Shown: in pieces, positions 18,303-29,005 of the stretch
Layout: each line of letters opens with the position of its first letter
Position numbering within the stretch: position 1 is the stretch's first letter
Origin: a virus
Reading direction: 5' to 3' (one strand)
UHGV virus genome: UHGV-0179013
DNA: 42,129 nt
Made by a program: the position numbers and the translations under genes
Notes under the pieces: model-generated
Database searches by the model: none
Seen by the model: only the letters and a program-made list of their open reading frames with translations
What the model was told of the DNA's origin: nothing

Positions 18303-20432
18303 TTATTTCGGCAGGAGTTGCGATATTCGCTTACGTTTGACCGGCGCTGGTTCTTCAATAACCGCACCCGGCAGCTCGTAATTGATTTTTTCTTCCTGTC
18401 CAACTGGCGCTGGCAGGAACTTATCCGGATCGGCTTCGAGGTTGGCGGCCCGGACGTTGAGTTTTAACCCCATATGTTTGAGACCGCACAGCGCGGCATA
18501 GCTGTAAACGAGGCAGTCAAGCGCTTCGTTAGCTCGTCCTGGTATTGCTTCCCAGATACTGTACCGCTGCCCGGAAATGACTTTGTAAACCAGTCGCTCC
18601 GCCAGCAGCTGATTGAAGTACCCGAGATCGCGATCGTCAGGAAAATGCATATAACCCGCAGCGGCGGCGCCAGGTTTGGGTGGCTCAAGATGCAGGCGAC
18701 CGCGTATCACGTCTTTCGCTGAGTTAACCCCCAGAATGACAGGGCGGAAACTGGCTTTGCTTTTCGATGATGGTCGTTTGGTCGGCCAGACAGGATTGCG
18801 TTTGCCTCCCTGTGCAGACTCCCCCTTAATTGCCCAGACACGACGGCCAAGACGCTCTTTGGCGAATTCGTATACCTTCTGCGTATGGTGGCCGCCGGAG
18901 TCCATGCACGTTGCCATGATATTCAGGCCGCGCCCGTCACCACGTCGCCAGATCTGTTTCAGGTATGCATCCAGTCGCTTCCAGGGTTCTTCCGTCTCAA
19001 GGTCACCATAAATAACGTCATGCGCGACCGACCACGATTCTTCATCTCTCCCCCAGCCGGTGATCGTAATTTCGAAGCGATCGTCCTGGGTATCAACTCC
19101 AGCTGTTAACAATGCCACCCCGTCCGGAACGACGGCCGGAAATATTTCCCGGCGCGCCAGCAGAACATCAACAGGGAGCTGTTTCCCATGATTAGGTCGG
19201 TGCGGAAGCCCCATCTGGGTATTCCACCACGCCTGTTCCTTATCCGGATCGCCCTTCGCATCGATATATTTTTTCGCAATATCCGACGGCTTATCTTTTT
19301 GCCAGGGGCTGAAAAGCTTGGATGCCTGGTACCCCACGTGGTGGTTATCGACTGCCTCCTTTCCACAGGAGGGGCAGATTGCGCGATAGACCGCATGCCG
19401 TTCCGACTCTGACCATTGCCAGACCTTTTCAACGCTGCCCTCGTCTGCCGCCCGCCAGGCAAGGTCATAATCCATCAGCGGTGAGTGCCGCTCCCCGCAG
19501 CACTCAAATGGGCGCGTCTGATGCCATCGAATAGTTTGCAGAGCTCTGAGGCGCTGTCCTTCGGACCAGCCACTACCACAGCATTCGCAATAGAGCATCG
19601 CCGATTTAGTCAGGTGTTTATCTCCCTCTTTCGGCCACTGAACGTGTTTGAAAAAGTCGGGGAACTGGCGGTGGCCACAGTGCGGGCAAACCACAGATGC
19701 CCGGCGCTGATCGGAGTCGGCGTAGCTGTCAGCAATGCGGCTCTCATCCTCCACCGTCGGCGAACAGGCGCGTACAGACAGCCAGGTCAGGCCAAATGTC
19801 GCTGTACGCTCTTCGGCCAGCGCAATTGGATCGCCTTCGCGGGTTATCGGGTACTTGTCCACTTCATCCGCCAGCAGGACACGAATCGGACGACGCGCAA
19901 GGTTATCAGGGCTACCAGCACCCGCCAGCGCCAGAAATCCGCCAGTGAACGCCTTGTAAAGAATGGTTTCTTTCGAGCTTTTCTGTTTCGAATCACCGAT
20001 GATTTTACGCAGTACCGGCGTCACCCTTACCAGCGGGCTAATACGCTCTTTCGAAAACTGTTCAGCGGCTTCTTCTTTCGGCTGCAGCAGCAGTATCGGA
20101 CAAGGATCGAGGTGGGCAAAATAGCCAAAAAGGTTTTCCAGCAGTGCTGTCTTCATCAACTGGGTACAGCACATTACAGTGATGATATGAACCCCGGACT
20201 CCGTCGCGGCAAGCATCGGTCCGCGGGCAATTTCTACCGTCGATGTTTCCCAGTTTCCCGAAGTGCTCCCAGCCTCTTTTGCCAGCTTACGATAGTCATC
20301 TGCCCACTGCGGCACACTGATACGCGGCGGGGGTGTCCAGCCTTTGCGGACGCTTAATTCAAGACGCTCAATCTTCTGCCGGGTTAAACTCTGGCTCTCC
20401 GAGGACTGAGATGTGTTTGTGGACATGTTCAA
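18303..20432 (-). CDS. Terminase large subunit, lambda gpA family
   Basis: 709 aa; N-terminal WADDYRKL and C-terminal NEALDCLVYSYAALCGL parallel lambda A (EWADANYYL ... NEALDCFVYALAAL). Confidence 0.9.
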   Translation of the reverse strand: MNMSTNTSQSSESQSLTRQKIERLELSVRKGWTPPPRISVPQWADDYRKLAKEAGSTSGNWETSTVEIARGPMLAATESGVHIITVMCCTQLMKTALLENLFGYFAHLDPCPILLLQPKEEAAEQFSKERISPLVRVTPVLRKIIGDSKQKSSKETILYKAFTGGFLALAGAGSPDNLARRPIRVLLADEVDKYPITREGDPIALAEERTATFGLTWLSVRACSPTVEDESRIADSYADSDQRRASVVCPHCGHRQFPDFFKHVQWPKEGDKHLTKSAMLYCECCGSGWSEGQRLRALQTIRWHQTRPFECCGERHSPLMDYDLAWRAADEGSVEKVWQWSESERHAVYRAICPSCGKEAVDNHHVGYQASKLFSPWQKDKPSDIAKKYIDAKGDPDKEQAWWNTQMGLPHRPNHGKQLPVDVLLARREIFPAVVPDGVALLTAGVDTQDDRFEITITGWGRDEESWSVAHDVIYGDLETEEPWKRLDAYLKQIWRRGDGRGLNIMATCMDSGGHHTQKVYEFAKERLGRRVWAIKGESAQGGKRNPVWPTKRPSSKSKASFRPVILGVNSAKDVIRGRLHLEPPKPGAAAAGYMHFPDDRDLGYFNQLLAERLVYKVISGQRYSIWEAIPGRANEALDCLVYSYAALCGLKHMGLKLNVRAANLEADPDKFLPAPVGQEEKINYELPGAVIEEPAPVKRKRISQLLPK

Positions 20433-20937
20433 TCAGCACCTCTGTCATCCTGTCCGCCGGTACATCCAGATCAGCAGCCATTAGCGGCGCCACCCTGGAC
20501 GGCCAGTTAAGCCAGGCATCACGCTGTTGGCGAAAGGCGTTGAATAAAACCTCCTCGGCTGCTGTCAGCTCAATAAGCTGGCCGCTGTCTTTTTCATACT
20601 GCAGCTTTGCCTGCAGGGCCATGTAATTCTCGCGGATACGTCCCGCTTCCTCTCTCGAAAGATCTGCCCCTTCAGTGAGCATTATCTGGCGGACAGTTTT
20701 ATTGATTTCATCACCGTCATCATCGTTATCGCTAACGACGGGAGTTTTCTTTTTCTTCGCGTTCGAGGCGCGCGGGTCTTTGCCATCGCGGTTTTTCTTC
20801 AATGCCGCATCGCTGGCCTCTACGTCAATCAGGTCTCCGTCCATCACAATGAAGCGCCCGGCTTTAATCCACCGGCCAATTGTTTTGCGATCCACACCTG
20901 AATGTTGTGCGTACTGACTCTGGTTCATCGTGGTCAT
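20368..20937 (-). CDS. Terminase small subunit, lambda Nu1-like, N-terminal HTH
   Basis: 189 aa; N-terminal MNQSQYAQHSGVDRKTIGRWIKAG parallels Nu1 VNKKQLADIFGASIRTIQNWQEQG; upstream TGGGACA repeat array. Confidence 0.7.
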   Translation of the reverse strand: MTTMNQSQYAQHSGVDRKTIGRWIKAGRFIVMDGDLIDVEASDAALKKNRDGKDPRASNAKKKKTPVVSDNDDDGDEINKTVRQIMLTEGADLSREEAGRIRENYMALQAKLQYEKDSGQLIELTAAEEVLFNAFRQQRDAWLNWPSRVAPLMAADLDVPADRMTEVLIEHVHKHISVLGEPEFNPAED

Positions 20938-21084
20938 GGGACATCACCTGGGACATTTTCTGGGGTGGGACATTCGCCTGGGACATTTTCGCAATGTCCC
21001 ACCAGAATGTCCCACTGGAATAAACTGGAATAGCCAGAGCTGGCGAGGTGTCCGTAATGATCGCCAGAGGTGGGACATGGGACA
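20937..21084. repeat. cosB-like repeat array: six direct TGGGACA heptamers and two inverted TGTCCCA copies immediately upstream of the terminase small subunit gene
   Basis: TGGGACA at 20937, 20949, 20966, 20979, 21071, 21078; TGTCCCA at 20995 and 21008; the 14-mer CCTGGGACATTTTC occurs twice. Confidence 0.55.
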
Positions 21085-21227
21085 CAAATCTGAAAGTTGT
21101 AGCTAGGAAAACACCGCGGCGCGCAATGCCCGTACCTTACAAAAGTCTCAGGAAGGACCCATTTTTTTAATGGCTTCGACCATTCGCTCCGACTATGATT
21201 ATTCCTATTCAATACAAGGAGAATGTA

Positions 21228-21731
21228 ATGGGTAACAATATAATCAAAATAACTTTCGTAGCCGCAGTGCTGGCATCACCAATTGCTCATGCCCAGTGGG
21301 TAACTAATACTGAAGATGACCTTTTCTCTGGTGGTAAGAAAGCAATGATGCTTGGCGAGGTTTCATCCGACAATGGCGCCATTGTGTTTGACTGCACTAA
21401 AGAAAAGCTATCGGCGGCATACGTTGAAATGGATAAAAGCACCGAATCACTATCAGAGGTACCAATGGACCTGATAATGAAGGTCGACGGGAATACCGCA
21501 GCGAAGCTCGATGCTACCCTTTCAAGACGTAATGTTCAGAGCCTCCAGATTCAATCGGATGACACGGACCAACTAAAAACAGTGCTTAAGCAGCTTCAGG
21601 GGGCGAAATCCAAAGTGTTAGTTGGTGTGCAAACAAAGGATGGCGGAAACCAGCATTCCATGTCAGCCAATGTTTCTGGATCGACAACTGCAGTAAACAG
21701 CTTCATAAAAGCTTGCGAAATTAGCTTATAA
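21228..21731 (+). CDS. Secreted/periplasmic protein of unknown function (moron); Sec signal peptide
   Basis: ATG at 21228 with AAGGAG RBS; N-terminus MGNNIIKITFVAAVLASPIAHA-QW has n/h/c regions and an AHA cleavage motif; plus strand within a minus-strand late region; AT-rich. Confidence 0.6.
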   Translation: MGNNIIKITFVAAVLASPIAHAQWVTNTEDDLFSGGKKAMMLGEVSSDNGAIVFDCTKEKLSAAYVEMDKSTESLSEVPMDLIMKVDGNTAAKLDATLSRRNVQSLQIQSDDTDQLKTVLKQLQGAKSKVLVGVQTKDGGNQHSMSANVSGSTTAVNSFIKACEISL

Positions 21732-21741
21732 GTTACTGCTT

Positions 21742-22389
21742 TTATTTTGCCGTCCTGATGGCTTCTGCTATCGCCTGATTTAAAGCAGACGGTAGCAGTG
21801 CGTTCGCCATGGTATGGGACCTATCCATATACCCCAGCACTGGAGTCACAGGTAGCGCATCACCAAACCGGATCAAAAGCTTTGGAGAACGCTGTTTGCG
21901 TTTCGGTCTTCGCGTCCCGTTAGCGGAACGTTTGGCCCGTCGCTTCTTAGCTTTCATCGGCTTCTTACGCTGCCAGACAGCGTTAACGCCATCAACCTCA
22001 CCTACGAATACATTTTCCTTTGTTTTAAGCTGTGAGAGCTTATTACGCGGCATGTTGCCGTATTTGTTTAGCTTAACGTTCTTGGGATTTAATAGAGCCT
22101 GGCTATTGAGCTTGTGCTCTCCGCCAAACTCGAATGGTTCCAGATAACCAGCAGCGGTATCGCGGACAAAAACCTTTGCGGTCAGATTGTTCTTTCTTGC
22201 CGCCACCGAACCAACTGATTTAACGGTAAACGGCGTGGGGCTCTCCAGATGTCGTTCGAATGCCGTCTTCTGAGCCAACTCAATCTGGCGTACAACTTTT
22301 GTCATCGCCTGAGCTGTGGCAAACGGGATTTGCTTTTGCAGTTGCTTTAACTGGTTTGATAAATCCTTCAGTGTTGCCATATCAGTCAC
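21742..22389 (-). CDS. Hypothetical phage protein with basic Lys/Arg-rich C-terminal region
   Basis: 215 aa ORF; KKPMKAKKRRAKRSANGTRRPKRKQRSPK tract; function not recognised. Confidence 0.4.
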   Translation of the reverse strand: MTDMATLKDLSNQLKQLQKQIPFATAQAMTKVVRQIELAQKTAFERHLESPTPFTVKSVGSVAARKNNLTAKVFVRDTAAGYLEPFEFGGEHKLNSQALLNPKNVKLNKYGNMPRNKLSQLKTKENVFVGEVDGVNAVWQRKKPMKAKKRRAKRSANGTRRPKRKQRSPKLLIRFGDALPVTPVLGYMDRSHTMANALLPSALNQAIAEAIRTAK

Positions 22390-22557
22390 CTGTATTTACT
22401 GCCTATTCTTCAGCATTATCGATTACAGTTACTGTCTGAATATCAGGATGTTACTTATCGTTGAGTCTGGGTAAGGTAATGGCTCAGCCCGTCAGCGGTG
22501 GGACGTTGGCGTACCAGCCTTGAGAGGAGTGCTGATTGCCTCTTGATAAGGAGACTT

Positions 22558-22827
22558 ATGCAATTTCTTCACAAACGAATGCACCTGAATGCAGGTGATG
22601 TCGTTGTTGTTGACTGCTCGCACCAGTGCAACATCCTTCTCACTACCGACAGTAACTTCAATAGTTATAAAAATAACCGGGGTTTTCATCATCATGGTGG
22701 TGGTGGTTTCTTCGAGAGACTTCCGACCCGGTTGGTTGCGCCTCATATGGGATACTGGAACGTTACGATTGATTTAGGTGGTGGCTCAGGAAATGTCACT
22801 CACAGCATCAGAGTCATTCCAGCATAA
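22558..22827 (+). CDS. Hypothetical small protein (89 aa), plus-strand moron
   Basis: ATG at 22558 preceded by AAGGAG with 8-nt spacing; overlaps antisense ORF 22492-22746, which I consider the shadow. Confidence 0.4.
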   Translation: MQFLHKRMHLNAGDVVVVDCSHQCNILLTTDSNFNSYKNNRGFHHHGGGGFFERLPTRLVAPHMGYWNVTIDLGGGSGNVTHSIRVIPA

Positions 22828-22983
22828 TAACTCACCCTTTGCCTGAGCTAAGGCATCCTCAAGGGCGGCAATAATCTTTTGCTGTACGCCGTCCTTAATA
22901 TAACTCCTGCAGGCCACACCTTCAGATGTTTCATTATCACGCATCCAGATAACTTTGGAGTTGTGTTCAACTAAAATTTTCAT
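22786..22983 (-). CDS. Hypothetical small protein (65 aa)
   Basis: ATG with GGGG-containing RBS; 3' end overlaps the convergent plus-strand ORF by 42 nt, so one of the two may be wrong. Confidence 0.3.
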   Translation of the reverse strand: MKILVEHNSKVIWMRDNETSEGVACRSYIKDGVQQKIIAALEDALAQAKGELLCWNDSDAVSDIS

Positions 22984-23022
22984 GATTTTTACCCCGTCGT
23001 TAACAATGATAATAAAGCATTA

Positions 23023-23054
23023 TCGCAGACACTCAGGGAATGCCTGCTGTAATG
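23023..23054. repeat. 32-bp direct repeat copy R1 (TCGCAGACACTCAGGGAATGCCTGCTGTAATG)
   Basis: 30 of 32 identical to copy R2 at 24041-24072; both lie 2-6 nt downstream of a minus-strand stop codon. Confidence 0.7.
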
Positions 23055-23060
23055 TCGCGA

Positions 23061-23585
23061 TCAGCCAATCAACAATTCTGGCTGCGTCACCTGCATGATG
23101 TGCTCATGCTCCAGTGCCAGGACGCGCTTTTCCTTCTTGCGTTCGTTCATTAAACGACTGCCGATCGTGCCTTTCAGCTTCGAGCGTGTTTCTTTGATGG
23201 CATAGCGGTGCTGCATTTCTTCGCCCATCGCCATGCGTCGGCTAAGTTGTTCGGACATCCAGTTGAATGCTGAGATATAACTCTCTTTGATTGCTGCAGC
23301 AGCTCTCCCAGTGAATCCCATCACAACCATGATCCAGCCATCTCTTGTCAGGCTGTACATCGGGCGAACCTTACCCTGCTCATCGATATAATCAGCCGAC
23401 GCAAAATTGCGTTGGCCAAACTCACTCGAGCAATCGGACTTAACCTGCTCGATTTTCCTGAGCACATCGCCGTGTCGCTTGCCGAAGTACTTGGCAACTT
23501 TTCTGGAAGTGGTGACGACCTCTCCGTTTTTGGCTTGCACCATTTCGCGGAAGTCGAAGGCCGGAATAACTGACGGATTATTCAT
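23061..23585 (-). CDS. Rha-family phage regulatory protein
   Basis: About 174 aa from ATG at 23585 (MNNPSVIPAFDFREMV ... TSRKVAKYFGKRHGDVLRKIEQ), pattern typical of the Rha N-terminal domain. Confidence 0.65.
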   Translation of the reverse strand: MNNPSVIPAFDFREMVQAKNGEVVTTSRKVAKYFGKRHGDVLRKIEQVKSDCSSEFGQRNFASADYIDEQGKVRPMYSLTRDGWIMVVMGFTGRAAAAIKESYISAFNWMSEQLSRRMAMGEEMQHRYAIKETRSKLKGTIGSRLMNERKKEKRVLALEHEHIMQVTQPELLIG

Positions 23586-23730
23586 AGCGTTTTTACCTTT
23601 TAGAAAGATGAGCCTGTTCGCACAGAAAAGCCGCCCCGAGATGGTCGCCACCATATACGGCAGTTCTCAGGCTCAGCTTTCTGAAAGACTCGGGATTGTC
23701 ATGCGCTGCGATGCGCGGTTTACTGCTGGT

Positions 23731-23756
23731 ATAAAAAAGCCTCGCAATTGCGAGGC
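23731..23756 (-). terminator. Intrinsic terminator (hairpin GCCTCGCAATTGCGAGGC followed by T6)
   Basis: Perfect 7-bp stem with 4-nt loop followed on the minus strand by TTTTTTAT; 26 nt downstream of the zinc-ribbon ORF stop. Confidence 0.7.
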
Positions 23757-23781
23757 CTGGGGTTATTTGTATCGCGACCCA

Positions 23782-23946
23782 CTACCTGTGAATGACAAAC
23801 AGAGATTTACATTTAGGGCAAAGTAACGCCTGTTGTTGGCGTACTTTCGTGGTCGAGTGTGTGGATTTATGTCCGCATATCGGGCACATGACAGTCGTAT
23901 TGGCTGCAAGCCCAACACGCTGCATTGCATAATCGAAAAATGACAT
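23782..23946 (-). CDS. Unannotated small zinc-ribbon protein (54 aa): MSFFDYAMQRVGLAANTTVMCPICGHKSTHSTTKVRQQQALLCPKCKSLFVIHR
   Basis: Hand-translated ORF below the 60-aa cutoff of the ORF track; CPxC-N18-CPxC motif; followed by a strong intrinsic terminator. Confidence 0.45.
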   Translation of the reverse strand: MSFFDYAMQRVGLAANTTVMCPICGHKSTHSTTKVRQQQALLCPKCKSLFVIHR

Positions 23947-24040
23947 GGTGGTTAACCTTTCAATGAATGGGGCTTATTATACCATGCATAGCTCAATTAT
24001 TAATCAATCATCATCGCATGCTTGATGCCATTTAGCTTTG

Positions 24041-24072
24041 TCGCAGGCACTCAGTGAATGCCTGCTGTAATG
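24041..24072. repeat. 32-bp direct repeat copy R2 (TCGCAGGCACTCAGTGAATGCCTGCTGTAATG); contains internal inverted repeat CAGGCA-N9-TGCCTG
   Basis: See R1; copy lies 2 nt after the stop of the 24075-24368 gene. Confidence 0.7.
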
Positions 24073-24074
24073 CC

Positions 24075-24368
24075 TTACTCTTCAACCGCCGCACCTTCCG
24101 GCAACTCAACACAACCAAAGACAGGCATACCCGGCGAACGGTCATCTTCCACCGCTACCAGTTGCGATTCGGAATACCAGCGCTCAGTCGCACATTTATT
24201 GGCGGCCTGGTAGTAAATAAAGTACTGGTTCTCACCTGTCACATGCTGGGAGCGGGCCTGTACCTCGCCGAACTCATCACTAATGCGCAAGTTCACTAGT
24301 TGCCCAAGACAGAATTTAAAGTCTTTTGCTACAGGAAAGATTGCAGCGCCGTTTTGTTCTTTTTCCAT
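24075..24368 (-). CDS. Hypothetical phage protein (97 aa) downstream of lysis cassette
   Basis: ORF with start after the Rz terminator; function not recognised. Confidence 0.4.
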   Translation of the reverse strand: MEKEQNGAAIFPVAKDFKFCLGQLVNLRISDEFGEVQARSQHVTGENQYFIYYQAANKCATERWYSESQLVAVEDDRSPGMPVFGCVELPEGAAVEE

Positions 24369-24380
24369 TACTCCCTCTCT

Positions 24381-24409
24381 TATTGTTAAAGAACCCCGCT
24401 ATTGCGAGG
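24381..24409 (-). terminator. Intrinsic terminator at end of lysis cassette (hairpin CCTCGCAATAGCGGGG plus T-rich tail)
   Basis: Hairpin shares the GCCTCGCAAT core with the terminators at 23739 and 25877; Rz stop codon lies inside the stem. Confidence 0.5.
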
Positions 24410-24941
24410 CTCTTACGTTCTCTATTTCCCGTATTCCGGAAAAATTGCCATTACCCTTTTCTATCGTTGCCAGCAAAGGTTCAATCCAGAGGACGGCCTG
24501 GCAATACGTCATTGAGCTGGCGGCAGCGGTACTATCATCGGTTGCGTTAGTGTTCCCGGTATCGGGGTGCATTGCGCTGGCACGTAAACGGTACGCGTAT
24601 TTGAGCAGCCCACCAGCGACATCAGCAGGAACAGGCAGATCACAGGTCTTTTCACGTCGGAGAATCTCCCGGTATTCGATGACAGTTTTCTCAGTACCGG
24701 CATCGATCAGCGAGTTAAGGCGGTTGGCGTTCTCTGCTATCTGGTTAAACCGATTGAAGTTGAAAGCCTGTGTAGTTATCACCGTCGCCTGCAGCGCGTT
24801 ATCATTACGTAATACCCGATTCTCACTCTGTTCTGTTTCAAGAGCTGAGCGGCTACGAACCAGTAATACGCTAAGCACTGCAATAATGATTACGACAGCC
24901 ACCAGCAGAACCGCAACAATCGTAATTTTTCTGGGTTTCAT
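24399..24941 (-). CDS. Rz-like i-spanin
   Basis: 180 aa; N-terminal transmembrane segment IVAVLLVAVVIIIAVLSVLLV; start overlaps endolysin stop; embedded lipoprotein ORF in another frame. Confidence 0.7.
   Translation of the reverse strand: MKPRKITIVAVLLVAVVIIIAVLSVLLVRSRSALETEQSENRVLRNDNALQATVITTQAFNFNRFNQIAENANRLNSLIDAGTEKTVIEYREILRREKTCDLPVPADVAGGLLKYAYRLRASAMHPDTGNTNATDDSTAAASSMTYCQAVLWIEPLLATIEKGNGNFSGIREIENVRASQ
24509..24703 (-). CDS. Rz1-like o-spanin lipoprotein embedded within Rz
   Basis: Signal peptide with lipobox LVGC followed by proline-rich mature part (VYVPAQCTPIPGTLTQPMIVPLPPAQ); entirely inside Rz in a different frame. Confidence 0.6.
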   Translation of the reverse strand: MPVLRKLSSNTGRFSDVKRPVICLFLLMSLVGCSNTRTVYVPAQCTPIPGTLTQPMIVPLPPAQ

Positions 24942-26092: not shown

Positions 26093-26127
26093 CAATGAAT
26101 AACATGCTAATAAGCAAGGATAAGGCG

Positions 26128-27213
26128 ATGGCGAGTGTAGACTTTAGCTTTGAAGGACTTCTAATAGAGAGAATTATCGCACACAGAGTTTTTCCTAAAA
26201 GTGCTGATAAAACCTTAACTCCCCCAAAAACCAGCAAATTTTTAATGGCATTCAAACAAGATGCATTAGATGCTTTTCAGGTGAGGATTACTGAGGCCTT
26301 AGCAAGTAAATCTCATGGAATTGAAATGTCTATTGGTGGTGTTGGTGATGATTGTTTTTTGAATCTGTCGGCTTCAACGTTTTCTAATGATACAGAGCAC
26401 TTCATCAAGGTTACAGAACGACTTGCAAGTAAACTTAGCGAGGCACAATACAACAGTTCTGCCCCTGGTGGGATATTGGCTGTATTGTCAGGGCGCGTAG
26501 GAAATGACTCACTTCCATTCCTTGCGGTAATAAAAGCTGAAACCCAAAATGGTTTTAGAACTATTGAAAATGATGAGCAGGTGACAATGGAGTTTATTGC
26601 TGAGCTTCTTTTAACTCCAGCGCAACGTTTTTATAAGATTGGTTTTATAGTCCAAACTATTGCTTTACCTCCTGATAGTGATGGTAATTATAGCAGCTCA
26701 TCTTATCGTGCATTTTTGTTTGACCATTTAATGACATCGACAGAAACAAAAAACGCCGCCGGATATTTCTACTCTCGATTTTTAGATATGGATATAAGCA
26801 AATCATCAAAAAAACTTACTCAAGATTTTTTTGAGAATACTAGGGACTTCATTAATACCGCACAAATAGAGGAAAGTAATAAACTTGCGCTGCATGAGGC
26901 TTTAAGAAGTGAAATGCGCTCAAGAAAGACCACATTAAGCACTGCGGATTTCGCAGAAACCAACCTCCCAGAAGAAATGCAGGGGGAGTATTTGGATTTT
27001 ATGAAGAACAAAAGCTTCCCTGCTGCCGCAGTAACTAAAGACAATGGTTATATTGAATCCAAATTAAAAATAAGAAGCAAGCTCGTATTCTCCAATGATG
27101 TATGGGTTTCCGTACCGCCAGATCAATTAAAAAATCTTGTGGAAATTATCCCGTCGGATGATAATGAATCAACGATTTTGAAAATAAAAGGGCGACTTAA
27201 AAGTCAACAATAA
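26128..27213 (+). CDS. Cassette gene A: 361-aa protein with YejK/NdpA (NA37 nucleoid-associated protein)-like features
   Basis: ATG at 26128 behind AAGGATAAGG RBS (ORF-track start 26095 lacks an RBS). Segments SAPGGILAVLSGRVGNDSLPFLAVIKAE and C-terminal ESTILKIKGR parallel E. coli YejK ([40 protein letters not shown]). Very AT-rich; stop overlaps gene B start (TAATG). Confidence 0.45.
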   Translation: MASVDFSFEGLLIERIIAHRVFPKSADKTLTPPKTSKFLMAFKQDALDAFQVRITEALASKSHGIEMSIGGVGDDCFLNLSASTFSNDTEHFIKVTERLASKLSEAQYNSSAPGGILAVLSGRVGNDSLPFLAVIKAETQNGFRTIENDEQVTMEFIAELLLTPAQRFYKIGFIVQTIALPPDSDGNYSSSSYRAFLFDHLMTSTETKNAAGYFYSRFLDMDISKSSKKLTQDFFENTRDFINTAQIEESNKLALHEALRSEMRSRKTTLSTADFAETNLPEEMQGEYLDFMKNKSFPAAAVTKDNGYIESKLKIRSKLVFSNDVWVSVPPDQLKNLVEIIPSDDNESTILKIKGRLKSQQ

Positions 27214-28205
27214 TGGATATCAATGAGTTCCGTGAGTTTTTACAGGCAAACCAGGATGCTTACGCAGCTTGGGGGCAGTTTGTGTCTGAAGAAATTTACA
27301 GTACTCTTTGTAGCTCTCTAGGGGATGACAAAGCCAAGCTCTTTCTAAAGATCCACTCAGAACCAAGACTAAAAAGTATAGCCTCGGCATTAGGAAAGGT
27401 CAGCCGTAAAGGATATGACAATCCAGTAGTGCAAATGACTGATTTGATTGGTGTACGCTTTGTAGTTCTACTCTCTGTTGAAATCAGAGCTATCAGTGAA
27501 ATAATTGAAAACTGTGATAAATGGGATGCGACTGTTTCTAAAGACTATTTATCAGAGATTGATGTTAACCCCAAAATTTTTGACTATCAATCGCGGCATT
27601 ATGAGGTAAGGCCTAAAGCTCAATTCGATTACTGTGGACAAAGCATAACGCCTGAAATGTGCTGCGAAGTTCAAGTTAGAACATTGCTTCAGCATGCCTA
27701 TGCTGAATTAGTCCATGATAGCGTCTACAAGCCTTCCGGTGATGTACCAAAATCTGCTGAAAGGCAAATAGCGCGTAGCATGGCCTTAATGGAAACAACG
27801 GATGATCTTTTTTGCAAAACAATGGAAATCTTGGCTGACAATAGCAAAGAGAGAAATGAGCTTTTAGAATTTCTTTCAGGATATTACGCAGAAAAAATAG
27901 GGAGGCAGTATATTGATGAAGATTTGCATGTTAACTTCTCCGTCATTGACACCTTTAAAGACCACATTGACGACAACTTACCAAATAAAATACACACACT
28001 TCTCAGTGAGAAAAAATACATCTCTGCACGGATAATTAATAGAGTTGAATACAATCCTCTATTCACTCAACCATGTATATTATTTGTGTACTGGTTAGCA
28101 AGCCAGATAGACTCAGGGGAAATGCTTTCAACATGGCCCCTGCCGGGCAATATTAGTGGGCTGGAGATGGTGCTAAGTGATTTAGGGAAAAGTATTTCTC
28201 GTTAG
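27213..28205 (+). CDS. Cassette gene B: RelA/SpoT-type nucleotide pyrophosphokinase (synthetase-fold) domain protein with about 150-aa C-terminal extension of unknown function; candidate toxSAS-like effector
   Basis: Synthetase motifs in order: RLKSIASALGKVSRK, DLIGVRFVV, DYQSRHYEV, EVQVRTLLQHAYAELVHDSVYK; compare RelQ RVKSPESIIEKLERK, DIAGLRVV, GYRSYHLVV, EIQIRTLAMNFWATIEHSLNYK. Translationally coupled to gene A. Confidence 0.7.
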   Translation: MDINEFREFLQANQDAYAAWGQFVSEEIYSTLCSSLGDDKAKLFLKIHSEPRLKSIASALGKVSRKGYDNPVVQMTDLIGVRFVVLLSVEIRAISEIIENCDKWDATVSKDYLSEIDVNPKIFDYQSRHYEVRPKAQFDYCGQSITPEMCCEVQVRTLLQHAYAELVHDSVYKPSGDVPKSAERQIARSMALMETTDDLFCKTMEILADNSKERNELLEFLSGYYAEKIGRQYIDEDLHVNFSVIDTFKDHIDDNLPNKIHTLLSEKKYISARIINRVEYNPLFTQPCILFVYWLASQIDSGEMLSTWPLPGNISGLEMVLSDLGKSISR

Positions 28206-28244: not shown

Positions 28245-28673
28245 TTAAAAGTCTAACATGGCAATGCATCCATCTACGAACCCCATTGCCGTCTGTAGTT
28301 CCTTTCTTATAGTCCCATCAGAGCACTTTCGCTTTTTAGCAATGGATCTCAACGAGATACCGATAACGAAGTGGGCAACAATCAATTCATATTCATCAGG
28401 CTTATATTTACGTAAGCGAGCCACACATCCATCAATCATGATTCCCTCATCGTCATCACACTGAAGTCGTGATTTCTTACCATGAGGTAAAAGTCCCTTG
28501 AATCCAGCTGCAATGGGTTGCCAGTCGACACCACTACTATCGGCTGCCGCCCATGCTCCCCATAAATCCATCACTTCATACATATCACGCATTGCAATTT
28601 CTCTTTCGTCTTCTCTGCTTAAAGGGTTAGCTCCCTGAGGGCTGAAATGTTTGAGTGATGCTTCCAGTTTCAT
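28245..28673 (-). CDS. Q-like late-gene antitermination protein
   Basis: About 142 aa from ATG at 28673; C-terminal region LIVAHFVIGISLRSIAKKRKCSDGTIRKELQTAMGFVDGCIAM resembles the region-4-like HTH of phage 82/21-type Q proteins; last gene of the early operon after replication genes. Confidence 0.55.
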   Translation of the reverse strand: MKLEASLKHFSPQGANPLSREDEREIAMRDMYEVMDLWGAWAAADSSGVDWQPIAAGFKGLLPHGKKSRLQCDDDEGIMIDGCVARLRKYKPDEYELIVAHFVIGISLRSIAKKRKCSDGTIRKELQTAMGFVDGCIAMLDF

Positions 28674-29005
28674 TGGATAGTGCCTCCCTTCTCGGCAGTG
28701 CCAAACCAGCCAGGATGCGCCCACTGAATATCGGTAACTTTATGGCCTTTCCCCCATAGCGATATCGAACGCATTGCAACGTAGTGCATAAATATTTTTT
28801 CCCGCTCAAGCCATTCATCCTCAGGCTTATCTTCAAGAAACTCATCGATTGCATCAGCAATAAGGCCAAAGCATTCGGGATAGTCGCTATGACTGATATC
28901 TATGTCTCGTACAGCATCCTGGAGTTCCATGAAGCGCTTTTGGGTGAATAAATAAGACATTTCGTGAATTAGACGATCCATTATTGGTTCCTTAAGCTTT
29001 TGCAT
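28670..29005 (-). CDS. Hypothetical phage protein (nin-region position)
   Basis: About 111 aa from ATG at 29005 (longer ORF-track start would overlap the DnaB-like gene). Confidence 0.35.
   Translation of the reverse strand: MQKLKEPIMDRLIHEMSYLFTQKRFMELQDAVRDIDISHSDYPECFGLIADAIDEFLEDKPEDEWLEREKIFMHYVAMRSISLWGKGHKVTDIQWAHPGWFGTAEKGGTIQ

Follow-up and report, generated by a model that had tools for sequence, protein, structure and literature searches.

A 37-nucleotide gene-end hairpin repeated in the late operons of temperate Enterobacterales phages

The two hairpin copies and their neighbours

The window considered here is the whole of the viral genome UHGV-0179013, 42,129 nucleotides long. 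A repeat search of it returns a direct repeat in two copies (23016-23054 and 24034-24072; 39 nt, 90% identity, spacing 1018), within which lies the 32-mer that an earlier note on this DNA had picked out (23023-23054 and 24041-24072, 30 of 32 positions identical). The 32-mer has exactly two matches, with none in 100 dinucleotide-preserving shuffles, and the chance expectation for repeat copies is none. Every gene around both copies is on the minus strand, and the features of the region, read in that direction, are as follows.

24075..24368, minus: 97-aa accessory gene (phrog_1935), function unknown, with its stop 2 nt before copy 2
24036..24072, minus: hairpin element copy 2, CATTACA GCAGGCATTC ACT GAGTGCCTGC GACAAAG
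24003-23976, minus: sigma-70-type promoter with extended -10 (TTAATA, 16-nt spacer, TG-TATAAT) for the zinc-ribbon gene, predicted by scan
23782..23946, minus: YnfU-like zinc-ribbon ORF, 54 aa (Pfam PF23499, E = 9.5e-8)
23758-23737, minus: intrinsic terminator from the terminator scan, a 9-bp stem then TTTTTTAT
23581..23756, minus: conserved terminator-plus-leader block ending at the Rha start codon, from phage matches and homology to the prophage L082
23061..23585, minus: Rha-family regulator gene, 174 aa, phrog_518 (Pfam PF09669, E = 6e-28)
23018..23054, minus: hairpin element copy 1, CATTACA GCAGGCATTC CCT GAGTGTCTGC GATAATG
22786..22983, minus: 65-aa gene (phrog_21096), the first downstream of copy 1, identical in L082

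Both copies, each 37 nt on the minus strand, follow minus-strand stop codons as had been noted, copy 1 at 6 nt (Rha TGA, 23061-23063) and copy 2 at 2 nt (TAA of the 97-aa ORF, 24075-24077). The internal inverted repeat reported for each is likewise there: the minus-strand RNA folds with a 10-bp stem and a 3-nt loop, at -18.4 kcal/mol (z -3.2) for copy 1 and -19.7 kcal/mol (z -3.9) for copy 2, and the plus-strand fold is weaker (-13.5 and -14.6 kcal/mol, respectively; z about -1.6). One G.U pair in the stem of copy 1 is G-C in copy 2, and the 3' flank of copy 2 has diverged (GACAAAG). A covariance model scores copy 1 at 62.6 bits on the minus strand compared to 30.6 on the plus strand, and copy 2 at 58.4 compared to 30.7; its application to the 42-kb window gives no third copy. 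The promoter and terminator scans list no promoter-like or terminator-like match at either copy. Comparison with Rfam gave no match at the gathering score for the whole window, nothing overlapping either copy for 22900-24200 at E up to 10, and nothing at the element for 10 related loci, where the only hit was STnc100, upstream of holins.

The segment between the copies was said to hold a terminator, a zinc-ribbon ORF and the Rha gene, and all three are present; phi80 carries a terminator annotation at the place homologous to 23758-23737. The ynfU ORF with its own promoter and terminator is, judged by these predicted signals, a moron (23731-24003), since the unit has promoter, ORF and terminator of its own in a late operon and the block 23731-24073 is transferable. 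In 13 loci this same protein is encoded next to the element on its downstream side. Below this unit, the terminator-plus-leader block is common to many phages, where it lies upstream of alternative genes (Rha, KilA-N or GIY-YIG); its phage matches (query 1179-1357) have about 94-95% identity, with different genes annotated beneath. The segment 23067-23756 is the only part of window positions 1-24000 with at least 88% identity to any deposited phage. As to the hairpins themselves, copy 2 is at the upstream edge of the ynfU moron and copy 1 bounds the Rha gene downstream.

A hairpin family in temperate phages

Both repeats are members of a large family of gene-end hairpins in temperate Enterobacterales phages. 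In this family CATTACA is followed by a 10-bp stem that closes a loop of 3-9 nt, with GATAATG after the return stem; as sense RNA the consensus reads (GG)CAUUACA, a stem topped by UUC/GAG with a conserved U.G wobble, the loop, the return stem and GAUAAUG(C). In a variant with TGTAATG at the 3' end, the stem is 17 bp. At least 120 IMG/VR contigs contain the exact core, and further scans bring the total to more than 340. Phages with the element include phi80, where it lies at 44298-44337 of NC_021190, as well as ST64B, phiP27, Fels-1 and ZF40, and it is carried by prophages of about 15 Enterobacterales genera, with conservation ranging from phages of Pectobacterium to those of Salmonella. A copy is also present in common laboratory strains that have phi80 remnants. 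The sequence was not found in the full-text literature, where coverage of subscription-journal phage genome papers is thin, and keyword searches gave nothing specific on an earlier description of such an element in lambdoid phages, though given that coverage a prior description is possible. The 37-base hairpin family is apparently undescribed.

In all five annotated phage records examined, as well as in this window, the element has the lysis cassette on one side and the terminase genes on the other, with its sense orientation that of the late operon. A set of 185,579 species-representative genomes yields 38 matches. Apart from one spurious match, all belong to Enterobacterales, where a genome has 1-3 copies, situated in prophages or their remnants. 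The exception, in a Gemmatimonadota MAG (L249), was treated as a chance match because both flanks are absent and the surrounding DNA is unrelated and G+C-rich. The main form is found in 430 of 5426 complete E. coli genomes, with a median of one copy and a maximum of four, and never under an annotated gene; overall, copy number is 1-4 per genome, in prophages only. This is not the picture of a ubiquitous host REP-like element, which the earlier note had named as the finding that would speak against its reading.

The placement after stop codons holds for the family at large. An ORF of at least 60 codons ends between -2 and +10 nt from the 5' end of the element in 81 of 128 cases in the sense direction compared to 14 of 128 in antisense, and a second sample, of other stem subfamilies, gave 58 of 103 compared to 15 of 103. 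Pairs of elements within one locus are in direct orientation in 44 of 45 cases; strict criteria were used here, as accepting up to 2 mismatches per flank led to obvious false positives, three of them in the window. The next gene often starts 10-30 nt downstream of the element, with no promoter of its own and with a ribosome-binding site often only about 20 nt past it. With regard to the ATG within GATAATG as a possible start codon, 23 of 128 copies have an ORF of 40 aa or more that begins at the 3' end of the element or no more than 10 nt from it, about the chance rate. The same gene family is followed by differing stem subfamilies, and most copies of the element do not adjoin rha.

With four stem pairs left unconstrained and the main stem type excluded, a pattern search yielded 41 distinct sequences. 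The four pairs are complementary in 41, 39, 40 and 40 of the 41, respectively, with A-U, C-G and G.U alternatives at each, and G.U wobbles number 33 compared to a single A.C mismatch. For a constant 5' arm, nearly every change in the 3' arm is C-to-U. An alignment of 76 sequences has double-sided changes in 39 cells (8.6 +/- 2.5 in shuffles) and a covariation score of 0.207, reached by none of 500 shuffles, compared to 0.110, with slid controls at or below 0.06; here as elsewhere in the analysis, counts are of sequences and not of independent evolutionary events. Sites picked by the flanks alone have a bimodal pairing count. Taken over these alignments, the substitutions show a hairpin that has evidently been kept by selection, and in the transcribed sense strand only. 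The CATTACA and GATAATG flanks are conserved as sequence with no covariation (0 double changes, 22 unpaired cells), which points to a putative sequence-specific partner. The earlier proposal of a reused post-gene RNA structure thus gains support from the covarying stem, the fixed flanks, the abutment on stop codons and the orientation with the upstream gene, all of which would suit such a structure.

Mosaic joints and the proposed role of the hairpin

Homology between the window and its relatives stops exactly at the element for both copies (breakpoints 23054|23055 and 24073). For instance, the near-identical prophage L082 has 100% identity up to the edge of copy 1 (23054), followed by about 1.2 kb of different genes that replace the Rha body, before homology returns at 23581; its 65-aa gene is identical, while the genes upstream of the element differ. 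A similar picture emerges at copy 2, where seven other contigs carry the ynfU module 23731-24073 at 99.7% identity and an eighth carries it at 99.1%. In all eight it follows Rz and the element rather than the 97-aa gene, and homology to these Rz-linked relatives ends at 24073. In a further locus (L015) the 97-aa gene and element are joined directly to a 215-aa gene. The suggestion of a module swapped at the repeat therefore stands with respect to the breakpoints, found at both copies (L082 and the ynfU block), but not with respect to the module, as the 1-kb interval is made of three or more pieces that assort independently, among them the ynfU moron, the conserved terminator-plus-leader and the Rha body. 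Likewise, relatives compared for the segment between the repeats have mosaic breakpoints at the element, but none among the compared loci is without the whole 1018-bp interval.

Across the family, the flanks of 194 unique copies fall into 99 families on the left and 112 on the right, which occur in 156 combinations. Positions 1-7 of the element track the left flank and positions 29-36 the right, a gradient seen over many small clusters with modest z-scores of 2 to 6. For one copy, the two flanks can be found apart from each other in E. coli, one in 12 genomes and the other in 8, with each match ending at the element, and no element-free site for that junction is found in E. coli genomes. No empty site, with both flanks joined in the absence of the element, was found with 272 constructs against 3.2 Mb of loci, and no duplicated target sequence was seen at the sites checked for empty junctions. 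These flanks show the element to be, in the loci compared, a point that joins unrelated flanking genes in many combinations, and on the same grounds the hairpin evidently marks points of accessory-gene swapping between phages.

The explanation that we consider moderately probable is a late-mRNA hairpin that doubles as portable homology for cassette exchange, with both repeats in the window as members of the family. The element resides in the variable part of the Q-dependent late operon that separates the lysis cassette from the terminase genes, directly after the stop of an accessory gene, and in the polycistronic late message it would act as a hairpin between cistrons. There it may shield or set the ends of processed RNA, or alternatively may insulate the translation of one cassette from the next; we infer an RNA-level role of this kind from the sequence patterns above. 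Being near-identical over 37 nt in otherwise unrelated phages, the element would provide enough homology for the phage or host homologous recombination machinery, such that gene cassettes could be exchanged by crossover at it. An exact run of at least 23 nt is common to 45% of random between-genome pairs of elements. The two possibilities raised earlier, an RNA structure and recombination at the repeat, thus both hold up and are not mutually exclusive. Regarding processing, about 93% of contexts have (G/A)C|AUUA at the 5' foot, which agrees with an RNase E-type motif (R-N-cut-W-U-U), but this motif is too weak to serve as evidence. A classical RNase III site would be longer than the 10-bp stem with its weak 5-bp AU-rich extension. 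An RNA hairpin is also not the only source of these patterns, since a single-stranded DNA hairpin of the same strand would yield equal covariation and wobble asymmetry.

Exact breakpoints and the many flank combinations would also be expected of a pure DNA-level linker, with no RNA function and persisting only as a homology patch for module recombination, and the element is just longer than the minimal efficient pairing segment of 23-27 bp for Red-beta and 31-34 bp for RecA (PMC3945230). A homology patch needs identity and not a hairpin, however, whereas the stems diverge by compensatory changes that keep the pairing; together with the asymmetry between G.U and A.C and the strict orientation to the upstream gene at its stop codon, this makes a linker alone unlikely. 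A site-specific recombination site that acts as a folded single strand (attC-like or HUH/Y1), by which a dedicated enzyme moves gene plus hairpin, has several points in its favour: the attC-like anatomy of partly complementary conserved ends (CATTA/TAATG), an unpaired 2-nt spacer and a variable, always-paired stem; flanks conserved as sequence rather than as pairs; and the position right after the stops of small genes, many of them promoterless, in same-orientation arrays spaced about 300-1000 nt. Yet there is no integrase or transposase gene beside the arrays, which share their lysis-terminase location in very different phages, the attC core motifs are absent, one gene family has different stem subfamilies after it, neither empty sites nor target duplications are seen and there are only 1-4 copies per genome, so we consider such a site improbable. 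Its extension to the whole lysis-terminase interval as an integron-like cassette array, in which a dedicated mechanism recognises the element as a folded single strand and recombines at it, we regard as quite improbable. Were it true, the conserved ends would be recognition or cleavage boxes and the covarying stem the structural part, and gene-plus-hairpin cassettes would move between phages without general homology, by means of a phage or host enzyme.

A stable G+C-rich hairpin directly after a gene resembles a transcription terminator or attenuator, one for each accessory gene. This is very unlikely, as neither copy is followed by a U tract (GAUAAUGCUUUAUUA and GACAAAGCUAAAUGG), the scan lists 23758-23737 and neither repeat, the next gene is often promoterless and within 10-30 nt, and the late operon of lambdoid phages is read by Q-modified polymerase, which ignores terminators. 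The absence of the U run, with tails of GAUAAUGC... and GACAAAGC..., led us to reject a terminator here. The inverted repeat and the adjacency of one copy to rha might instead indicate a double-stranded DNA operator for a dimeric regulator such as Rha, or a cruciform-forming site, but the majority of copies are away from rha, the half-site sequences vary through compensatory substitutions and the half-sites are 16 bp centre to centre, and so would lie on opposite helix faces. The wobble asymmetry leaves A.C mismatches on the complementary strand, which weakens a cruciform and is irrelevant to a duplex-binding protein; on balance an operator or cruciform is highly unlikely. Least credible is a host REP-like repeat or an autonomous miniature transposable element within the prophage: the short extragenic imperfect palindrome is like REP, but the E. 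coli and species-representative counts given above, the prophage contexts, the same phage interval in every annotated case examined and the failure to find empty sites all stand against it. We rejected it on copy number and context.

Whether the modules of mosaic phages are joined at random, by illegitimate events, or by recombination at conserved linkers is still debated. The element offers a concrete, easily searched 37-nt sequence, with structural evidence of covariation grade, at hundreds of different gene junctions. It provides a direct experimental handle on the late-operon shuffling of accessory genes, among them morons and perhaps defence or virulence cargo, and on the question of processing or insulating hairpins between the cassettes of long late transcripts. 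It is additionally a candidate new RNA family and could be a practical marker of prophage cassette boundaries in annotation.

Comparison with known systems

The promoter-early stem-loops (PeSLs) of T4-like phages (PMC2839356, PMC4122927) are likewise short conserved stem-loops repeated between small variable genes of a hyperplastic region, with endpoints of insertion, deletion and replacement at the motif, at which homologous recombination has been proposed. They differ in being a composite of terminator and early promoter in virulent T4-type myoviruses (PMC4122927), whereas our element has neither a promoter consensus nor a U tract. Additionally, it has another sequence and lies in the late operon of temperate phages, abutting stop codons.

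Conserved boundary or 'linker' sequences of lambdoid phages were reportedly described by Susskind and Botstein in 1978, Juhala et al. in 2000 and Clark et al. in 2001. They too are short and conserved, lie at gene boundaries and have been proposed to direct the homologous exchange of modules. The patches in question are scattered and locus-specific, whereas the element is one structured 37-nt family with covariation that recurs at many junctions, in several phage types and several host families.

REP/BIME sequences, like the element, are extragenic imperfect palindromes of about 35 nt at gene 3' ends within operons, with a short conserved motif at the side of the stem. REP hairpins, which are associated with a RAYT transposase, stabilise upstream mRNA and act as recombination sites. 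They number hundreds of dispersed chromosomal copies compared to 1-4 for the element, in prophages only, and have GTAG at the 5' end and the REP consensus, to which CATTACA...GATAATG is unrelated.

Integron attC sites are also imperfect inverted repeats after the stop of small cassettes, with conserved ends and a variable paired centre, and form one-orientation arrays under an upstream promoter. In contrast, the element has no R/L core motifs: RYYYAAC/GTTRRRY is absent, and its ends are CATTACA and GATAATG or TGTAATG. Nor is there evidence of site-specific excision or an intI, attI and Pc platform, the neighbours in the window and in the annotated phages being lysis, accessory and terminase genes, and within subfamilies its centre is highly conserved, unlike that of attC.

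The RNase III hairpins of the T7 group are similar in that related hairpins lie between the cistrons of a long phage transcript. After cleavage, the 3' hairpin stabilises the upstream message. Those sites have a helix of about 20 bp with an internal loop, compared to 10 bp plus a weak 5-bp extension here. Lastly, morons, a term from work on HK97 and HK022, are units of promoter, gene and terminator inserted in late operons. The ynfU unit (23731-24003) resembles them in its predicted promoter and terminator and in the 99.7% identity of its block in other contexts; the term, however, names the cargo, whereas the hairpin is the junction element.

The repeat pair and its place in the late operon

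The window is a lambda-like prophage whose minus strand carries, in order, Q, two hairpins, the lysis genes, the repeat region, more small genes, terS, terL and the portal.

28245-28724, minus strand: Q antiterminator
26006-25874, minus strand: two terminator-like hairpins
25817-24399, minus strand: lysis genes (holin, lysozyme, Rz)
20368-20937, minus strand: terS
18303-20432, minus strand: terL, gpA-type
After terS and terL in minus-strand order: lambda-family portal

Given this order, from Q through lysis and the repeats to packaging, the repeats sit in the late operon, in its variable stretch between lysis and packaging genes, and all genes of the repeat region lie on the minus strand. We found no close relative of the window among deposited phages, and the one part of its first 24 kb to reach at least 88% identity with known phages is 23067-23756 (Rha and its leader).

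A repeat search of the window returns a direct repeat of 39 nt in two copies (23016-23054 and 24034-24072), 90% identical and 1018 nt apart. The 32-mer described in the earlier note occurs exactly twice in the window and never in 100 shuffles, so the pair is real. Read on the minus strand, copy 2 begins 2 nt past the TAA of a 97-aa ORF (24075-24368) and copy 1 begins 6 nt past the TGA of Rha, as the note had it (2-6 nt after minus-strand stops), and the inverted repeat it saw inside each copy is a 10-bp stem on the minus-strand RNA. This RNA folds as GCAGGCAUUC, the 3-nt loop NCU and GAGUG(C/U)CUGC, with energies of -18.4 and -19.7 kcal/mol for the two copies (z-scores -3.2 and -3.9); the plus-strand fold of both copies is poorer because the G.U pairs turn into A.C mismatches there. 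The copies differ at two sites, one being a change of a stem G-C to G.U, and their longest common exact run is at most 17 nt. The segment between them does hold the terminator, the 54-aa zinc-ribbon ORF and Rha that the note had listed, and also an extended -10 promoter:

24003-23976, minus strand: extended -10 promoter
23782-23946, minus strand: YnfU-like zinc-ribbon ORF, 54 aa
23758-23737, minus strand: intrinsic terminator
23061-23585, minus strand: Rha gene

On the plus strand, two genes are inserted between Q and holin (26095-28205), one encoding a 372-aa NA37-family (nucleoid-associated) protein and the other a 330-aa protein with a RelA/SpoT domain and a weak PADLOC match to PDC-S33, a candidate defence family; this may be a defence or toxin moron (a transferable promoter-gene-terminator unit) of the alarmone-synthetase type. 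The Rfam sRNA STnc100 lies upstream of holin in related prophages (L082, 2100-2299; L137, 4210-4395; L126, 57-275; L002, 5800-5914); an Rfam scan finds it absent from the window, where other DNA occupies the corresponding region. At least 7 copies of TGGGACAT(T), in both orientations, lie in 20930-21085, immediately 5' of terS and extending over its start; they look like cosB-type sites for binding of the small terminase subunit. Just before terS, a 178-aa protein with a signal-peptide-like N-terminus (phrog_19473) is encoded on the plus strand (21195-21731), opposed to the late operon, and the adjoining 215-aa gene (21742-22389, minus strand) has a PHROG match annotated 'minor tail protein' though it lies upstream of the terminase genes.

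A strand-specific hairpin at gene ends

The 37-nt gene-end hairpin (copy 1, 23018-23054; copy 2, 24036-24072), here called the element, has the consensus CATTACA, a 10-bp stem, a loop, the return stem and GATAATG. Its lower stem, CAUUA/UAAUG, is able to pair across a 2-nt internal loop, and is fully paired in the variants CATTACA...TGTAATG and CATTATT...AATAATG. Among 218 distinct upstream contexts the two bases 5' of the element are usually GG (76% and 82%), and a stop triplet ends 0-3 nt before it in 147; the base on its 3' side is often C, and the next gene starts 10-30 nt past it in about one third of copies. The stem subfamilies have identical flanks, and the UUC/GAG top and U.G wobble are common to all:

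GCAGGCAUUC/GAGUGCCUGY, subfamily of the window
GAAGCYCUUC/GAGGGGCUUC
GCAGCCCUUC/GAGGGGCUGC
GGAGCCAUUC/GAGUGGCUUC

A short-stem form lies 3' of rha in one E. coli prophage.

The cleanest test of pairing searched with a pattern in which only the flanks and some stem positions were set, the main stem type was left out and four stem pairs were under no pairing constraint. These were complementary in 41/41, 39/41, 40/41 and 40/41 distinct sequences, compared to 37.5% by chance, and each occurs as two or three pair types (for one, A-U 21, C-G 11 and G.U 9; for another, C-G 27 and A-U 13). When sites are selected by flanks alone, the pairing count is bimodal, with a chance hump at about 4/10 and a second peak at 9-10/10 that is kept among sites with arms at least 4 positions off the main consensus. 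In a 76-sequence alignment both sides are changed in 39 cells, compared to 8.6 +/- 2.5 after shuffling, and there is a covariation score of 0.207 against 0.110 (0/500 shuffles), with slid partners at 0.06 or less; these sequences were picked for at least 8/10 pairs, which makes the percentage paired circular, though not the double-change counts. The flanks show no covariation in this alignment and are kept as sequence. Wobbles are asymmetric, with 33 G.U cells against 1 A.C in the 41-sequence set, and when the 5' arm is held fixed the 3'-arm changes are nearly all C-to-U. Pairing, double changes and wobble asymmetry together mean that the hairpin forms on the sense strand only, which speaks against both a cruciform and a duplex operator and fits RNA, or single-stranded DNA of the sense strand.

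Gene positions are also polar: the end of an ORF of 60 codons or more falls -2 to +10 nt from the 5' end of the element in 81/128 cases in sense compared to 14/128 in antisense, and for the other stem subfamilies an ORF end falls at the element in 58/103 compared to 15/103. In multi-copy loci 44 of 45 copy pairs are in direct orientation, typically 300-1100 nt apart, and the commonest spacing, 311 nt, corresponds to a DUF2560 gene between two different stem subfamilies. The hairpin is strand-specific, selected, and placed at the ends of late-operon genes, in keeping with the earlier suggestion of a reused post-gene structural element; that it acts in RNA, in the late mRNA, is what we infer. 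Its likeliest role would be that of an inter-cistronic hairpin defining or protecting RNA ends, or insulating translation of neighbouring cassettes.

In a group of related loci (L014 and L041, with L060, L071, L077 and L107) that have the same flanking gene and identical stem arms, the central loop region is found in either orientation, as ATTCACTGAGT or as ACTCAGTGAAT. The pattern points to inversion or exchange involving copies of opposite orientation, which may also be the source of the fully palindromic TGTAATG variant.

Mosaic joints at the element

The 194 unique copies fall into 99 families by their left 200 nt and 112 by their right 200 nt, in 156 combinations, with Rz, DUF2560, Rha, KilA-N-like proteins and lipoproteins among the upstream genes, and several terS types, an HNH endonuclease, the YnfU-like gene and lipoproteins among those downstream. 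Variable sites in the 5' part of the element follow the left flank at z = 2-3 but show no such tie to the right (z about 0), and positions 29-36 follow the right flank (z up to 6.4), a gradient expected from crossovers inside the element.

Breakpoints fall at the element. The near-identical prophage L082 is 100% identical to the window over 21823-23054, ending exactly at the edge of copy 1; beyond it the Rha body gives way to about 1.2 kb made up of a KilA-N-like gene, a pair of small genes and a terminator, and identity restarts at 23581, the Rha start codon. The ynfU moron with copy 2 (23731-24073) recurs in eight contigs, seven at 99.7% identity and one at 99.1%, in all of which it follows Rz and the element, not the 97-aa gene; in the related locus L015 the 97-aa gene and element are joined directly to the 215-aa gene at 22380. 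In an independent check on one junction, searched with the element removed in E. coli genomes, 3 genomes have both flanks and the 37 nt, 12 have one flank only and 8 the other only, with matches stopping at the junction, and none has an empty site with both flanks and the element missing. Two single-flank genomes were inspected, one per kind: one has the element joined to a new downstream flank, and the other only a degenerate variant at the junction.

The proposal that a module was swapped in at the repeat thus stands as to the breakpoints, as at 23054 in L082, but not as to the module: the 1-kb interval is made up of the ynfU moron, a terminator-leader block shared with other phages, and a Rha body open to exchange. 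A second sharp mosaic joint falls at the start codon of the Rha gene slot.

The terminator-plus-leader block upstream of Rha (23579-23756) is found at about 94-95% identity in many P22-like, epsilon34-like and other phages, where it precedes different genes with a common start (Rha, KilA-N, GIY-YIG nuclease family, 'DNA-binding protein'). The pre-Rha terminator AAAAAGCCTCGCAATTGCGAGGC (23734-23756) is a second repeated hairpin, recurring with 83% identity at 24388-24410, where it straddles the Rz stop codon (24399-24401). These two terminator-like copies enclose the 97-aa gene, copy 2 and the ynfU moron, so recombination between terminators may have brought this segment in.

Being nearly identical in unrelated phages, the element would serve as a site for crossovers. 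For Red-beta the published minimal efficient pairing segment is 23-27 bp, and for RecA 31-34 bp (PMC3945230). Exact runs of at least 23 nt are found in 45% of random between-genome copy pairs compared to 5% of within-genome pairs (median runs 20 and 8 nt), a contrast that is suggestive only, as a few architectures dominate the within-genome sample. By these lengths equivalent copies in different phages could recombine, whereas copies in the same genome seem too unlike to delete the intervening genes, and their divergence may reflect selection against deletion between direct repeats. Same-genome copies are usually of different stem subfamilies, for instance in the related loci L064 (6401-6437 and 6712-6748) and L002 (2993-3029 and 3304-3341).

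Distribution and relation to known elements

At least 120 IMG/VR contigs carry the 23-nt core of the element, and half-site scans together with a scan for other stem types add more than 220 contigs beyond these. The element lies directly 3' of rha in phi80 and 3' of DUF2560 genes in E. coli prophages, and is also present in ST64B, phiP27, Fels-1, Pectobacterium phage ZF40, mEp390, cdtI, Edwardsiella EPP-1 and many Klebsiella prophages; in each annotated record examined it sits between the lysis cassette and the terminase genes, in sense orientation, whatever the packaging type. A one-genome-per-species set (185,579 genomes) gives 38 matches with 1-3 copies per genome, from Leclercia, Erwinia, Citrobacter, Enterobacter, Kosakonia, Atlantibacter, Rahnella, Pectobacterium, Kluyvera, Raoultella, Ewingella, Mixta, Yokenella, Mangrovibacter and Phytobacter. 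For 30 of these loci a match to viral contigs covers 38% or more of the locus; of the other eight, seven were inspected, and in five of these an Rz remnant next to icd, transposase fragments or lysis genes point to a prophage or its remains. Locus L250, where the element adjoins rph and yicC, is possibly a small prophage remnant; L249 was rejected as a chance match, both flanks being missing.

The main form is present in 430 of 5426 complete E. coli genomes, with a median of 1 copy and a maximum of 4, and never under an annotated feature. These counts rule out the ubiquitous host REP-like element that the earlier note had set against its own reading, and a terminator scan led us to reject an intrinsic terminator as the identity of the element. 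No Rfam family matches it in the window or in ten related loci, and a full-text search found no paper with its sequence, older subscription-journal genome papers being beyond reach. The repeat pair in the window belongs to a large family of gene-end hairpins that are found at cassette junctions and are apparently new to the literature; apart from the single module, the original interpretation was essentially right. The family would carry greater weight if its conserved flanks prove to be the site of a dedicated enzyme.

Among known systems, REP is similar in form, but the element fails the abundance and sequence that define it. attC sites are similar in anatomy and position, though the element is without attC core sites and without any integrase. 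The closest concept is the PeSLs of T4-like phages, conserved stem-loop motifs where variable genes are exchanged (PMC2839356, PMC4122927), which, unlike the element, are promoter-terminator composites of virulent phages.
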